Origin: Candidatus Zemynaea palustris
GTDB lineage: Bacteria > Vulcanimicrobiota > Vulcanimicrobiia > Vulcanimicrobiales > Vulcanimicrobiaceae
Direction: 5' to 3'
Length of the DNA stretch: 64,000 nt
Assembly: GCA_003134695.1 (NCBI GenBank)
Contig: PLCB01000016.1
Coordinates: 3,528 to 67,527, forward strand
Of the stretch, positions 8,124 to 41,136 are shown piece after piece. Below the pieces are notes generated by a model. That model worked only from the letters and a program-made list of their open reading frames with translations. It made no database searches and was not told the origin of the DNA. Made by a program: the position numbers and the translations under genes. Numbering within the stretch: the stretch's first letter is position 1; every line of letters starts with the position of its first letter.

Positions 8124-8726
8124 TTATAGCACATTTTTCAGCGAGTCGACCCGCGCAACGCCGATCATCGCGTCGCGCGTCACGAGCATCGCGCATTCGG
8201 CCTCGCTCAACGAGTCGGTCTCCTCGGGCCGCATCGGCAGAACGAGGTAGCGCATGTCGGCGGTGCTGTCGTGGACGCGGACCGTCATGCCGGCGGGCAG
8301 GTGCAGACCGAACTCGGCGAGCACGGCCCGCGGCTCGCGTATGGCGCGCGAGCGATACTCGAGGCTCTTGTACCAATCTGGCGGAAGCCCGAGCAGCATC
8401 CGCGGATAGCACGAACACAGCGTGCACACGATGAGGTTGTGAAGCATGGGCGTGTTCTCGACGACGACCAACTTCAAACTGCGGACCTCGATCCCGAGCT
8501 CGCCGACGGCCGCACTCCCGTCCTCCAGCAGCCGCGCTTTGAAGCCAGGATCGAACCAGGCGCGGGCCACGACGCGCGCGCCGAGTGCAGGGGTGCGGGT
8601 GTACATGAACTCGACCCCCGCGTCGACGGCGGCGTCGCTGACGACCCCCCTCTCGACGAGGAGTTCACGGAAGGCCCGCTCCAGCAGCTCCGCGTTCCGA
8701 TCGTAGCGAGCGTGTTCGAGGCTCAT
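8124..8726 (-). CDS. nitrile hydratase family alpha subunit (Co-type metal site)
   Basis: From ATG 8726 (MSLEHARY...), 200 aa. Contains the metallocentre motif VCTLCSCYP followed by LGLPPDWYK. The N-terminal 104 codons of ORF 8124..9038 overlap the next gene and were discarded. Confidence 0.85.
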   Translation of the reverse strand: MSLEHARYDRNAELLERAFRELLVERGVVSDAAVDAGVEFMYTRTPALGARVVARAWFDPGFKARLLEDGSAAVGELGIEVRSLKLVVVENTPMLHNLIVCTLCSCYPRMLLGLPPDWYKSLEYRSRAIREPRAVLAEFGLHLPAGMTVRVHDSTADMRYLVLPMRPEETDSLSEAECAMLVTRDAMIGVARVDSLKNVL

Positions 8727-9019
8727 CGTTTGTCCTCGGTTTTCTCGAGCCAGTGTTCGTAGATCTCGACGTCGAGCGTATCTTCGGCCGCGCCGACGTA
8801 GTCGGGCCACACCTCGCACTGTGCGAACCGGACGCGATAGAGCGGCTCGCGCTCGCCGGCGTAGCGACCGTAGGCCAATTCTTCGGGCTTGCGAAACTCG
8901 CCGCAGATGCGCTCGACCACGCCGCGCTTGCCGCGGATATAGCGCGGCGTGCGAACGTGGCCGGCGGTAAATTTGTCGAGAACGCGCACCCGTTCGCCCG
9001 GGTTGAAACGCGGCGTCAT
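8723..9019 (-). CDS. nitrile hydratase beta subunit, C-terminal (SH3-like) half as a separate polypeptide
   Basis: 98 aa. FNPGERVRV...GHVRTPRYIRGKRGVV...PLYRVRF...EVW...VEIYEHWLE aligns by eye with the C-terminal half of Rhodococcus NHase beta. The stop and start codons overlap the neighbouring genes. Confidence 0.8.
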   Translation of the reverse strand: MTPRFNPGERVRVLDKFTAGHVRTPRYIRGKRGVVERICGEFRKPEELAYGRYAGEREPLYRVRFAQCEVWPDYVGAAEDTLDVEIYEHWLEKTEDKR

Positions 9020-9360
9020 CGCTCGCCTCGCCGGGCATGCTCTCGCTCGTGCGCGCGCTCGACCTCGGCCAGACGCCGTTCGAGCGCGACGCGTTCGATC
9101 ACGCCTTTCTCAGCCATCACGGCAATCAGCGAATGCAACCAGCGCTCGTAGTAGCCGAGCAAACGGTATTCGTCCGCCGAGAGCGACTCGATCCCGCGTC
9201 GCAACTCGTCGACGCTCATCAGCGCTCCGCCGGGCCGCTGCGGGTCGGACAAGAGTTGCATCAGCGCGTCGACGCGCATCTCCCAAGGGAGGATGGCGTG
9301 CTGTCCGCGCGGGACCGGCGCATCCGTCCGCGTTCCACCGAGATCGTGGTGCCCGCTCAT
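9016..9360 (-). CDS. nitrile hydratase beta subunit, N-terminal half as a separate polypeptide
   Basis: 114 aa starting MSGHHDLGG (NHase beta signature is M.G.HD.GG). Also has ...PWE.R..AL... and YYERWLHSL. Confidence 0.8.
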   Translation of the reverse strand: MSGHHDLGGTRTDAPVPRGQHAILPWEMRVDALMQLLSDPQRPGGALMSVDELRRGIESLSADEYRLLGYYERWLHSLIAVMAEKGVIERVALERRLAEVERAHEREHARRGER

Positions 9361-38048: not shown

Positions 38049-38438
38049 CTAGCGAGTTCGCGGCTCGAGCAACTCGACCGGGATGCCGTTGGGATCCTCG
38101 ACGAAGGCGATCCAACGCGTCCCGCCCGGCGACTTCTTCGGCCCCTTGATGACCTTCACGCCACCGGCCTGGAGGCGCTCGACGAAGGCCGGCAAGTCGC
38201 CGTCGACCTCGACCGCAAGGTGCTCGTAGCGATTGCCGATCTCGTACGGCGGATGTTTTTCGAGATCGTAGACGAGTTCGATGTACGAGCTCCAATCGGC
38301 GCCGACGAACGCCATGTCGGCGTTTCCGGGAAAATGATTCGGTCCATCGAGCAGCTTGAGCCCGAGCTTCTTGGTGTAGAACTCGATCGATTCGTTCATA
38401 TCGTTGACGAAGATCGACGTGTGCAAATAGCGCGGCAT
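38049..38438 (-). CDS. glyoxalase I / VOC-family lyase
   Basis: 129 aa: HTSIFVNDMNESIEFYTKKLGLK...YEHLAVEVDD-like...FVEDPNGIPVELLE. Confidence 0.8.
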   Translation of the reverse strand: MPRYLHTSIFVNDMNESIEFYTKKLGLKLLDGPNHFPGNADMAFVGADWSSYIELVYDLEKHPPYEIGNRYEHLAVEVDGDLPAFVERLQAGGVKVIKGPKKSPGGTRWIAFVEDPNGIPVELLEPRTR

Positions 38439-38562
38439 GGGTCTTCCGTTCGACTTTTCCGTCGAATTCCCAGTCCCATCTCAGCGTCGTCTAAACAGCC
38501 GGACATACGCTGACTGCACGGGCTCGGCCCGATTCGTTTTCCGTGGCCCGCGGAGGAGATTC

Positions 38563-38955
38563 ATGAAACACACCCTGTTGGCCGTCGTCATCCTCGCGCT
38601 CTGCGCGACCGCCGTCTCGAGGGCGGCGGCCGATGATCCGGCAACGAGCGTAAGCTTCAGCGACGGCGCGATCGCGACCGGATACGACCATTGCGGCGAG
38701 GCCGATCTTTGCGCCAAGATCAAGTATCGCGACGGCGATTCACTGCTGTTTTTCTCGGAAGGGGCCGCTTTAGGCCAGCCGTACGTCGTTCACGTCGTCC
38801 GGACACGCCAGAAGCAGACGCTCTTCGAGTATTCGCGCCGCCTCGAGAACGTGGGAACGAGCCTCACGCTCGATCATGGGCTCGTGCGCTTGATGGCGTA
38901 TTTGAACAAAGACGGGACGCTCCGTTTTACGTTCGTGCCGACGACGGCGAGGTGA
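38563..38955 (+). CDS. secreted hypothetical protein
   Basis: From ATG 38563 with GGAGGAG upstream. Signal peptide MKHTLLAVVILALCATAVSRAAA|D. Confidence 0.55.
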   Translation: MKHTLLAVVILALCATAVSRAAADDPATSVSFSDGAIATGYDHCGEADLCAKIKYRDGDSLLFFSEGAALGQPYVVHVVRTRQKQTLFEYSRRLENVGTSLTLDHGLVRLMAYLNKDGTLRFTFVPTTAR

Positions 38956-40138
38956 GCTCCGGCTTGGTGCGCTTGCGGCCGCCGTAGACGCGGGCGAGCA
39001 CGTCGTCGCGAACGCGGCACTTGGCGCACGCGCCGCAAGCGCGCTCGCCGGCTTCTTCGCATGACCGCGACAGCGCAAACGGAACCTTGAGACGCTTCCC
39101 GAGTTGCACCGTTTGAAACCGCGTGTGGTTGCGCAGCGGCGTCAGGATTTCGAGCTTCTTCAAATCGGTCCAGCGCAGGTCACTCGATTGATCGAACGCC
39201 TTCCCCAGCAGATCGACGAACCGCGGGTGGTCGCCGTACGAGCCCGCGGAAGGCACGCCCTTCGTGTCTTGCCGGCCGCGCCAAGCCAGGGCCATCTTGG
39301 GAACCCCGAGCCCGTCACAATATGATGCCGCTATCCCGAAAAAGATGAAGTTTCGCATCGGAACCCAGCTGTTGAGCGCGTACTTCGAATTCGCCGCATC
39401 CGGGTAGAAAAACGGAAAACGCTTCCAGAGGTCGAGGCGCATCGTCTCCTTCGAGAACTCGCCGTCGTAGTGGCGTGCGATGTTGCGCGCCGCCTCTTCC
39501 TCTTCGGCGGCGGCCGGTTGCCCGTAGTCGATGAAGACGCTATGCGGTTTATAGCCGTTGGCCTTGAGCCATGCGATCGTCACGAGGCTATCGAGGCCAC
39601 CTGAATTCAGGACGATCGCCGGGTTCGAGTACGATGCCCCCGGACAGGCGGCCAATGTGTACTTCAAGTCTTCGAAACCGTGAAGAAAATACTCGGTTTT
39701 CGGCCAGTCGCGGCACCAGCGCGGCCGCGCCTCGTAGACCGTGCAGAGATTGTCGTCGCCGAGGAAGACGCACTGCGTCTTGTCTTCGTAATAGTGCAGC
39801 CGGCCGTCTCTGCCGCGGAGCATCTTGCTCTTGGGAATGCGCGGCGCGTCAGGATAGCGTTCGTAGATCGCTTGCAGGTCGTCCTCGGCGAAGGTGACCC
39901 ACGCGCTCTTTGCCCCCGGCCCGATCATCGTGCAGCAGTTTTGCGGACAACCGAAGCACTTGCTCTGATCGAACTCGACCCCTTCGATGTAGCGAGCTTC
40001 CTCGATGTACTTCTGCGGATGGTCGTCCGGGCTAAAATAGCTTTGCAGAAGATCGACGAACTCGGGGAGACTGGTGGGCTGCTTGACGTCTCTGCGTGGC
40101 CCAGTATCCTGAAGGGTGCGTTTGCGCGAAGGCCGCAT
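38927..40138 (-). CDS. fusion protein: N-terminal YkgJ-type CxxCxxCC cysteine-cluster domain plus C-terminal QueC-like PP-loop ATPase
   Basis: The N-terminal part has CFGCPQNCC ... CVFLGDDNLCTVYEARPRWCRDWP (UPF0153/YkgJ pattern). The C-terminal part has the PP-loop LNSGGLDS, DYGQ, VPMRNFIFFGIAASY and the QueC-type zinc knuckle SC...CGACAKCRVR. Hand counts of 39301-39420 give 64/120 G+C, against 46/60 in a nearby purH sample. Confidence 0.75.
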   Translation of the reverse strand: MRPSRKRTLQDTGPRRDVKQPTSLPEFVDLLQSYFSPDDHPQKYIEEARYIEGVEFDQSKCFGCPQNCCTMIGPGAKSAWVTFAEDDLQAIYERYPDAPRIPKSKMLRGRDGRLHYYEDKTQCVFLGDDNLCTVYEARPRWCRDWPKTEYFLHGFEDLKYTLAACPGASYSNPAIVLNSGGLDSLVTIAWLKANGYKPHSVFIDYGQPAAAEEEEAARNIARHYDGEFSKETMRLDLWKRFPFFYPDAANSKYALNSWVPMRNFIFFGIAASYCDGLGVPKMALAWRGRQDTKGVPSAGSYGDHPRFVDLLGKAFDQSSDLRWTDLKKLEILTPLRNHTRFQTVQLGKRLKVPFALSRSCEEAGERACGACAKCRVRDDVLARVYGGRKRTKPELTSPSSART

Positions 40139-40227: not shown

Positions 40228-41136
40228 CTAGGCCCGATGCGCTGGGACGAGTGTCAACGCCAGCGCGAGCACCAGCAGCGCGCCGCCGACGATCGCAACC
40301 GGCCCGAGAGATTCGTGGACCACGAGGATGGAGAGCGTCGTTCCGGTCGCGATCGCAGCGTACTGGCTCCCAGCGGTCGCAATCGTCACGTTGGCCCGCT
40401 TGATCGCCTCGGCGTGCGCCGCCGGTGCGAGCAGCGCCGAAATTACGACCAGCGCCACCAGCACTTTGATTGCGACGTCGGGCGTCGCGAGCGAATGGGC
40501 GACCGCGGTCGGGATAAGCGGCGCGCCGACAAGCGCGACCAGCGCGAAGCCGCCACCCCACGCGATCGCCGTGACGAACGGCGTCGGATAGCGGCTCGTG
40601 AGCCGCAGCATGACGTAGGAGTATGTTGCGAAGACGGCGAGCCAGCCGAACATCACCGCGTCGCCGAAAAGCGATGTCCCGCCGCTCGCCTTTCCAAACG
40701 CGATGAAGGCGACGCCGGCGGCCCCGACGCCGAGCGCGACGCGACGCAGCGTGTCGAGCGGGCGGTGCAGCACGACCGCTTCGAAGGTTGCAACCGCCAG
40801 CGGCGCGAGGCCCTGCAGCAGCACGGCATGCGCGGCGCTCGTGTGCTGAATGGCGAGTTGGTACAAGAAATTCAGGCCGAAGCCGACCAGGAGCGCGGCG
40901 GCCAGAAAAAGCCACGCGTCGCCGCGCTCGATCGTTCCGGCGCGAGGGCGCGTCAGCAGCGCGAGAACCACAAACGGCGGGACCGCCCAAAAACCGCGCG
41001 CAACCGAGAGTGAAAACGCGTCGAACAACGTTCCGCCTTGCGCCAGAAAGAGCAGCTTGGCGGCGGGAGCGAGCATTCCCCATCCGATCCCCGCGCCAAT
41101 CGCCAACGCGGCTCCAAGAGCCGAACTCCGACGCAC
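40228..41136 (-). CDS. DMT-superfamily (EamA-like) transporter
   Basis: 302 aa, ten hydrophobic helices, two EamA-like halves. Confidence 0.8.
   Translation of the reverse strand: MRRSSALGAALAIGAGIGWGMLAPAAKLLFLAQGGTLFDAFSLSVARGFWAVPPFVVLALLTRPRAGTIERGDAWLFLAAALLVGFGLNFLYQLAIQHTSAAHAVLLQGLAPLAVATFEAVVLHRPLDTLRRVALGVGAAGVAFIAFGKASGGTSLFGDAVMFGWLAVFATYSYVMLRLTSRYPTPFVTAIAWGGGFALVALVGAPLIPTAVAHSLATPDVAIKVLVALVVISALLAPAAHAEAIKRANVTIATAGSQYAAIATGTTLSILVVHESLGPVAIVGGALLVLALALTLVPAHRA

Follow-up and report, generated by a model that had tools for sequence, protein, structure and literature searches.

What does a QueC-type enzyme do when it is fused to a cysteine-cluster domain? The question is raised by a gene of Candidatus Zemynaea palustris (assembly GCA_003134695.1) located in a 64,000-nt stretch of contig PLCB01000016.1 (positions 3,528-67,527 of the forward strand), which was analyzed as a whole and is called the window below. 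The gene (38927..40138 of the window, minus strand, as are all features of the fusion given below) is complete and encodes a 403-aa protein with an N-terminal YkgJ-type cysteine-cluster domain and a C-terminal QueC-family PP-loop ATP-pyrophosphatase domain. Canonical QueC (EC 6.3.4.20) converts 7-carboxy-7-deazaguanine (CDG) into preQ0, and enzymes of the QueC family also attach deazaguanines to proteins in the cyclic-oligonucleotide-based anti-phage signaling system (CBASS) and in Qat defense, and feed phage DNA hypermodification. The fusion is best read as a lineage-restricted enzyme that is neither housekeeping QueC nor QatC nor Cap9; judged by its sequence relationships, it probably makes a 7-deazaguanine compound.

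A fusion gene under purifying selection

The combination of a YkgJ-type and a QueC-like domain in one open reading frame (ORF), proposed in a first-pass annotation of the window, is borne out by Pfam, where both domains exceed their gathering cut-offs: QueC (PF06508) with 101.4 bits over residues 174-381 (38996..39619; cut-off 22) and CxxCxxCC (PF03692) with 33.4 bits over residues 60-148 (39695-39961; cut-off 23), the latter lying within a cysteine-cluster domain of residues ~20-170 (39629..40081). Every motif named in that annotation was also found, at the positions given below for each domain. Sequence inspection leaves the ATG at 40138 as the only possible start, and because no other start codon occurs between it and the starts of the relatives, the first ~18 residues represent a lineage-specific extension.

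This is a real gene that is selectively maintained. Its orthologues are 73-79% identical and occur in conserved synteny, and the ratios of nonsynonymous to synonymous substitution (dN/dS) among four orthologues are 0.07-0.12 for the N-terminal and 0.11-0.19 for the C-terminal domain, values that are approximate at a dS of ~1 yet far below 1. Both domains are thus under purifying selection, and in the alignment of window-type orthologues the catalytic residues and the eight cysteines of the N-terminal domain are invariant. Foreign composition, by contrast with what had first been proposed, does not mark the gene. The low value reported for 39301-39420 (about 53% G+C) was reproduced (52.5%), but the whole gene, at 61.5% G+C against 64.3 +/- 2.9% for the genome in 1.2-kb windows, falls at the 14.5th percentile, and at third codon positions its G+C (GC3, 78%) matches the 78-82% of hisS, purH, smc and the EamA gene, so the composition is not foreign. 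The difference resides in codon positions 1 and 2 and therefore reflects amino-acid make-up, not a foreign signature.

The C-terminal QueC-type domain

An AlphaFold2 (AF2) model built from a 74-sequence alignment has a predicted local distance difference test (pLDDT) score above 90 across most of residues ~170-385. Its top Foldseek matches are Cap9 9nto_B (E 8e-11, TM 0.79 on target) and the QueC structures 2pg3 and 3bl5 (E to 1e-9), and 9nto_B is also the best sequence match in the PDB, with 52.9 bits. The alignment and motif table place the SGGLDS PP-loop, which would bind the ATP alpha- and beta-phosphates, at residues 179-184 (39587..39604). It is followed by DYGQPAAAEE (39500..39529; DYGQ at residues 204-207), a YxQ(x)5E variant without the histidine of the canonical YxQxHxxE signature (PMC13329287), and by the VPMRN loop (residues 259-263, 39350..39364), whose arginine is equivalent to R86 of Cap9. 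SYGDHPRF (39218..39241), located in a 33-aa segment, departs from the YPDC substrate motif in carrying histidine for cysteine but keeps its tyrosine and aspartate. The zinc knuckle SCEEAGERACGACAKC (SC-x7-CGACAKC, residues 359-374, 39017..39064) contains C360, C368, C371 and C374, with a glutamate at the position of Tyr189 of E. coli QueC. A basic residue is likewise kept at the PL(x)4K position, which reads PL(x)4R in the fusion.

The significance of this pattern is best seen against the structure of Cap9 with CdnD, in which Y115 and D117 of the YxDC motif hold the deazaguanine together with R86 of the RN motif, the latter stacking on the base, while the PP-loop serines bind the nucleotide (10.1101/2025.04.06.647259). 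The fusion retains the equivalents of these AMP and deazaguanine contacts, namely Tyr-x-Asp, the arginine and the PP-loop, together with the four zinc cysteines. Because the Cap9-type contact residues are kept, binding and adenylation of CDG by the C-terminal domain would be the most economical inference.

The same domain is far from the canonical enzyme by profile. It scores 83 bits on the QueC equivalog model TIGR00364 (cut-off 150.3) and 22.8 bits on NF008317 (cut-off 378), lacks three signature residues and branches outside canonical QueC, so the early suspicion that this is not canonical QueC holds.

Phylogenetic position and phage-type relatives

In the trees, the eight fusions form one clade (support 99/90), sister with full support (100/100) to a group of QueC-like proteins (P0009-11, P0018 and P0021), and the two groups together lie within a non-canonical clade (100/97) apart from canonical QueC. 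Three Cap9 loci were verified as Cap9-Cap10-CD-NTase-effector, and in an LG+C20 tree with ten such short QueC-like sequences, nine of the ten group in a separate 100/100 clade, away from the fusion.

The contigs carrying the sister clade are phage-like and encode RuvC, SpoVS, QueD, QueE, FolE and a DpdA-type transglycosylase (phrog_887, 145 bits). These phage clusters belong to the 7-deazaguanine DNA-modification type, and each has the QueC-like gene as its sole QueC. On sequence grounds, the C-terminal domain of the fusion is accordingly best read as having a phage-related ancestry. Cysteine-rich genes adjoining the QueC-like gene were not found in the phage contigs L076 and L077. On another phage contig, L105, the QueE (radical SAM) gene is apparently interrupted by an intein (474-2189, 571 aa; Pfam Intein_splicing and LAGLIDADG_3, a LAGLIDADG homing-endonuclease domain).

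The N-terminal cysteine-cluster domain

The first cysteine block, CFGCPQNCC (residues 61-69, 39932..39958), holds C61, C64, C68 and C69 in the spacing CxxCxxxCC. The second, CVFLGDDNLCTVYEARPRWC (residues 123-142, 39713..39772), holds C123, C132 and C142 in invariant columns, and C165 (39644-39646) follows it. All eight cysteines are invariant across the eight fusions. The score above the PF03692 cut-off, the N-terminal cysteine block and the C...C...RP..C block place the domain in the PF03692/YkgJ family.

The domain is 29% identical (BLASTP E 7e-6) to a stand-alone 156-aa YkgJ-like protein of the same genome (G000), encoded at C4:50978-51448 (L005 1432-1902) and carrying the motif CPPGCAECC. 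This stand-alone protein is present in 70/70 genomes of the host's family (f1) and 2/2 of family f2, is found in 0/9 of family f3 and is essentially missing elsewhere in the phylum. It shares, in turn, 36% identity (E 4e-35) with a CxxCxxCC protein of 224 aa from phage contig L105 (14328-15002), which has a DpdM-like CxxxCxxCC motif and is encoded ~4.6 kb from the QueC-like gene of the sister clade, within a cluster containing QueD, QueE and FolE. The N-terminal domain of the fusion itself shows no BLAST similarity to this phage protein, and an hhalign match through the second cysteine block covers 29 columns only. Close stand-alone relatives of the domain were found neither by a word-indexed search nor in GenBank phages; P0019, P0020 and P0039, considered as such homologues, are fragments or frameshifted fusions. 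The small genome holds further paralogues of the family, as two tandem YkgJ-like (PF03692) genes adjoin purF (contig C12, L003 1114-2381, minus strand).

Two relatives of this domain have been described functionally. FliB is a [4Fe-4S] flagellin lysine N-methyltransferase with a CX4CX3CC motif (PMC8598068), and the phage protein DpdM, a YkgJ homologue with CxxxCxxCC, has been proposed to N-methylate the aminomethyl nitrogen of preQ1 (10.1101/2023.04.13.536721). The characterized relatives modify primary amines, DpdM doing so on a 7-deazaguanine. Methyltransferase activity of the domain in the fusion is not inferable from them. The YkgJ fold has three links to deazaguanine chemistry: DpdM from the literature, the cluster on phage contig L105 and the fusion.

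Rarity and a second fusion type

When 5.8 billion protein clusters were searched with a word index, eight clusters (90% identity) with the fusion came up; identity to the query is 75-100% for seven and 41% for the remaining one. A later profile search added one further fusion, P0164. Among 1.84 billion representatives, an exhaustive profile hidden Markov model search recovered only a handful of clusters at 50% identity that span both domains, plus fragments, some visibly frameshifted. With one genome taken per species (185,579 species), the fusion occurs in 3 records only, labeled "UBP12_UBA5184", "Vulcanimicrobiaceae bacterium" and "Candidatus Eremiobacteraeota bacterium". It was found in Eremiobacterota alone, where 4/201 genomes of the family carry it, and is confined to a few uncultured soil bacteria. 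The impression of an unusual architecture gained at first reading is strengthened by the 2026 survey of PF06508 (PMC13329287), which does not mention it: a cysteine cluster joined to QueC has not been described before. Orthologues are annotated by JGI as 7-cyano-7-deazaguanine synthase.

A second, "short" type of fusion occurs in another genus and at another locus. Short-type proteins are devoid of the 33-aa segment that holds the YPDC-equivalent Tyr-x-Asp motif, and some members have degenerate PP-loops (SGGLAS, DGDAAS), have lost zinc cysteines or survive as frameshifted fragments. Their loci (L009 721-1128; L016 809-1504; L028 5420-5989) contain a conserved upstream gene of ~135 aa (MDGLSFLKERIPAYADYGDEDARHLV...) that overlaps the start of the fusion and has no Pfam match, as well as an adenylate cyclase-like gene and, in convergent orientation, a gene for an SSF/FecR membrane protein. 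The 135-aa product was considered as a target with an N-terminal glycine and rejected; it begins with MDG, and the gene is not present at window-type loci.

Pathway genes and a class-wide gap

The host genome (2.7 Mb, 96.7% complete) has the genes to make CDG: a FolK-FolE2 fusion and adjacent queD-queE (C45:62312-63391). The former is a single 493-aa ORF joining FolK (HPPK) to FolE2 (GTP cyclohydrolase IB) on contig C41 (L102 997-2478). Downstream functions are represented by tgt (C41:89128-90258) and queA (C42:63307-64416), the genome having one TGT-family (PF01702) gene only. QueF, type I FolE, YhhQ and QueT were searched for in the genome and not found. No DpdA-like gene was detected in it with phrog_887, a profile that matched no control genome either. 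A weak Pfam match on C45, considered as a second QueC, is MnmA.

It had been stated at the outset that the gene would be the housekeeping enzyme if the genome had no other queC while queuosine genes were present. Formally this is the situation found, with tgt, queA, queD and queE in place, but it is not decisive. QueE is present in 193/201 f1 genomes (122/122 of the high-quality ones), TGT in 59/60 and QueA in 60/60, whereas QueF is found in 0/201 and a real QueC-family protein in 5/201, comprising the four fusions and one protein of another kind. Families f2 and f3 of the same class likewise have QueE and no QueC or QueF, and ordinary QueC occurs in families of the phylum that are more distantly related, together with QueF in several of them. 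Since QueE, TGT and QueA persist in nearly all relatives without QueC and QueF, the argument that a sole QueC must be housekeeping fails, and the lineage is not reliant on a recognizable QueC. The fusion is an accessory gene on top of a QueC-less background. The class-wide gap suggests either another route from CDG to preQ1 or another use of CDG.

The fifth QueC-family protein of the family is a stand-alone 205-aa QueC-like protein with a CH(x)5CxxCxGC knuckle (G117:C33, L080 237-2845), its gene being flanked by those for a PfkB-nucleoside 2-deoxyribosyltransferase fusion and for an OGG-like glycosylase; it fits the uncharacterized "cluster 4" of the PF06508 survey (PMC13329287).

Candidates for the missing steps were not found in the neighborhoods of tgt, queA and queDE in the host genome. 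The stand-alone YkgJ-like protein was considered as filling the QueC/QueF gap and rejected, being found in 0/9 genomes of f3, which has QueE without QueC and QueF; the FAD-oxidoreductase neighbor of its gene is not conserved. A link to the three-gene, split-beta, Co-type nitrile hydratase encoded in the window (8124-9360) was dismissed as well: its co-occurrence with the fusion is not specific, because the alpha subunit is present in 78/201 f1 genomes, including all four fusion carriers.

The locus and its history

The gene was described at first as an orphan without que, Qat or CBASS genes next to it. The second part stands, the neighbors being EamA, PurH, SMC, glyoxalase, DUF1980 and HisRS genes. 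The first part is only half right, in that several species of the genus keep the locus in synteny: the order SMC-PurH-(EamA)-fusion-glyoxalase-DUF1980-HisRS-BCCP-GmhA is kept in four other assemblies. In three sister genera (g72, g76, g79), the glyoxalase gene comes right after purH, without the fusion or the EamA gene in between, and because of this direct adjacency the fusion represents an insertion into a block of housekeeping genes. To assume instead that it was precisely lost in each sister genus is less parsimonious. That the gene is lineage-specific, as had been supposed, is therefore supported by the empty sites. Within the genus the fusion is also less conserved than its surroundings, with 74% identity against 95% for the glyoxalase and 96% for HisRS.

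Upstream of the fusion by 89 nt, on the same strand, is a gene for an EamA/DMT-family transporter (40228..41136, minus strand). It accompanies the fusion in some relatives (L010, L011), not in others (L012, G157), and is missing from the empty-site genera; its linkage to the fusion is unproven. At the other end, the 3' end of the fusion overlaps by 29 nt a convergent gene for a small secreted protein (38563..38955, plus strand; 130 aa from M43, the full ORF extending over 38437..38955). The overlap noted earlier is real, and so is the convergent gene, since, counted from M43, its product shares 72% identity with that of the convergent neighbor in the relative L013. The empty-site genera have no such gene.

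Proposed activity and its alternatives

Taken together, the sequence evidence favors, with confidence about evenly balanced, an accessory, phage-related QueC-type amidoligase or nitrile synthase that would activate CDG and whose YkgJ/DpdM-type metal-cluster domain would work on the same substrate or product. In this scheme, CDG made by host FolE2, QueD and QueE would be bound by the C-terminal domain and its carboxylate adenylated; attack by a nitrogen nucleophile, most simply ammonia, would yield 7-amido-7-deazaguanine (ADG); preQ0 could follow by a second ATP-dependent dehydration. The N-terminal domain would bind one or two metal centers, [4Fe-4S] or zinc, and would either act on the side chain that carries the nitrogen, in the same substrate or product, or pass it on. 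The gene itself was inserted between purH and the glyoxalase gene in one genus of Eremiobacterota.

Several observations weigh against the CDG-activating enzyme proposed here. Nitrile formation may not occur, because three canonical signature residues are missing (the histidine of YxQxHxxE, the cysteine of YPDC and Tyr189), of which only Tyr189 has been tested in E. coli, where the Y189A variant of QueC is inactive (PMC13329287). In the AF2 model the N-terminal domain has a pLDDT of 35-55 over most of its length. An obvious sink for the product was not found in the genome either, where QueF, a DpdA-like gene and a second TGT are all missing. Finally, since the short type is without Tyr-x-Asp, and some of its members have degenerate PP-loops or have lost zinc cysteines, CDG catalysis may not be the common denominator of the fusion family.

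Among the alternatives, a housekeeping role is unlikely: the protein would be the genus's preQ0 synthase for tRNA queuosine, its cysteine domain being structural or regulatory. It is the only QueC-family protein of a nearly complete genome that also encodes QueD, QueE, FolE2, TGT and QueA and in which no preQ0/preQ1 importer (YhhQ, QueT) was found, and the JGI label agrees. Yet the family census shows a lineage that makes or obtains the queuosine precursor without recognizable QueC; because QueF is missing, preQ0 could not go on to preQ1 by known enzymes; and the gene is inserted where sister genera have none, evolves faster than its neighbors, falls under the TIGR00364 cut-off and has no counterpart of the tyrosine essential in E. 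coli. Somewhat more doubtful is a deazaguanylation ligase of the Cap9/QatC kind, which would join CDG to the amine of a protein or peptide, the target being a partner protein or the fused domain serving as adaptor. Cap9 is the closest structure in both sequence and fold, the DYGQPAAxxE and SCE(x)6C knuckle motifs are common to the fusion and verified Cap9, the canonical histidine and tyrosine are missing from both, and CDG is available while a nitrile route has no downstream enzyme. Against this, true Cap9 proteins occupy a separate, fully supported clade and reach 180-217 bits with the PADLOC model of Cap9 type, PDLC00911, where the fusion has 73; CD-NTase, Cap10, QatA, QatB and QatD are not encoded nearby and the TGT family has just one gene in the genome; members of the sister clade are encoded in phage clusters that are biosynthetic; and no conserved neighbor with an N-terminal glycine was seen.

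The scaffold may also have been repurposed, as in LarE, WbpG and the cluster-4 proteins of PF06508, into a PP-loop amidoligase acting on a carboxylate other than a 7-deazaguanine. PF06508 has changed substrate repeatedly (PMC13329287), the YPDC motif is altered here and wholly missing in the short-type relatives, and linkage to que genes is lacking; this is nevertheless quite improbable for a protein that keeps the Tyr-x-Asp, arginine and zinc knuckle of deazaguanine-binding members and whose nearest relatives lie inside FolE/QueD/QueE/DpdA clusters. That the gene is a decaying relic of phage or defense origin with no present function would fit its sporadic distribution, its divergence, faster than that of the flanking genes, and the degeneration seen in the second branch. 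Such a relic is very improbable in view of the intact state of all seven species-level orthologues in the window's branch, the invariant catalytic residues and N-terminal cysteines, the low dN/dS in both domains and a GC3 that is fully ameliorated.

A bolder extension of the CDG-activating enzyme, and an improbable one, treats the fusion as a "Rosetta stone": YkgJ-type domains would partner QueC-type enzymes, and CDG would be turned into a deazaguanine made unlike in the known pathway, such as an N-modified amide, or preQ1 formed without QueF by the cluster domain acting as a reductase. If true, it would point to how this class of Eremiobacterota keeps QueD, QueE, TGT and QueA without QueC and QueF, and because of the class-wide gap between CDG and preQ1 the fusion is a natural entry point to a QueC/QueF-independent queuosine route. 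If both domains act on one substrate, the fusion would also give a functional handle on the large, almost uncharacterized PF03692 family; if the protein is a plain preQ0 synthase, the outcome is a modest correction of annotation.

Comparison with known systems

Canonical QueC has the same fold as the C-terminal domain (Foldseek E 1e-10 to 1e-9) and shares with it SGGxDS, YxQ, VPxRN, a basic residue after PL and a four-cysteine zinc knuckle. The fusion differs from it by His39 -> Ala, Cys134 -> His and Tyr189 -> Glu, by a knuckle spacing of Cx7C instead of Cx8C, by the additional 170-aa N-terminal domain and by the lack of linkage to queD/queE. Canonical identity was rejected on this basis: the PP-loop and the four cysteines are there, but the TIGR00364 score and the YxQxHxxE, YPDC and tyrosine features are not those of QueC.

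With Cap9 of type IV CBASS (9NTO) the fusion shares LxSGGxDS, DYGQPAAxxE, RN and CE(x)6CxxCxxC. Of the six elements of the Cap9 signature (LxSGGxDS, Y/FxQ(x)5E, RN, H(x)4YxDCxxxF, PF(x)4K and CE(x)6CxxCxxCxD), 4/6 occur in it; it has YGDH instead of H(x)4YxDC, PL(x)4R instead of PF(x)4K, and no xD at the end of the knuckle. Cap9 is ~185 aa long and at verified loci always accompanied by Cap10 (TGT-like) and a CD-NTase, neither of which occurs at the fusion locus. Its separate clade, the low model score, the lack of Cap10 and CD-NTase neighbors and the single TGT-family gene speak against membership in Cap9. Membership in QatC was likewise rejected, with 16.3 bits on NF041925 (cut-off 280), 16.7 on PDLC02214, 19.5 for the PDB QatC structure 9vlk and no Qat genes adjacent. 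The first-pass suggestion of a Qat or CBASS remnant thus finds no support, the more so as the genome encodes neither Cap10 nor a DpdA-like second TGT.

Known fusions offer a parallel in layout. Gat-QueC (GATase_7 with QueC) and ComB-QueC (2-phosphosulpholactate phosphatase with QueC) also carry a C-terminal QueC domain after another catalytic domain, but the partner domain differs and their QueC is canonical (~165-245 bits on PF06508, with YPDC and CY). On the N-terminal side, DpdM, a DUF3109 protein that would N-methylate preQ1/dPreQ1, and FliB resemble the fusion in combining a PF03692-type CxxCxx(x)CC motif with a downstream C...C...C block, and DpdM is a precedent for a YkgJ fold acting on the side-chain nitrogen of a 7-deazaguanine. 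The N-terminal domain is shorter (~150 aa, against ~230 aa in DpdM and ~400 aa in FliB), has no DUF3109 match at E<=1 and reads CxxCxxxCC instead of CxxxCxxCC; with these differences, and with neither QueF nor a DpdA-like gene in the genome, the fusion was not assigned to DpdM.

The closest counterparts of the C-terminal domain are the phage QueC and QueC* proteins of FolE-QueD-QueE-QueC-DpdA clusters (10.1101/2023.04.13.536721), to which it is 37-42% identical and with which it shares NSGGLDS and the D-H-x-x-F form of YPDC with an extra segment around it. The phage proteins are stand-alone, ~230-236 aa long and encoded beside QueD, QueE, FolE and a DpdA-type gene, whereas the fusion is chromosomal, carries the cysteine domain and resides in a genome in which no DpdA-like gene was found. 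A phage-type QueC joined to a YkgJ-type metal-cluster domain thus represents a third, previously undescribed architecture of the QueC family.

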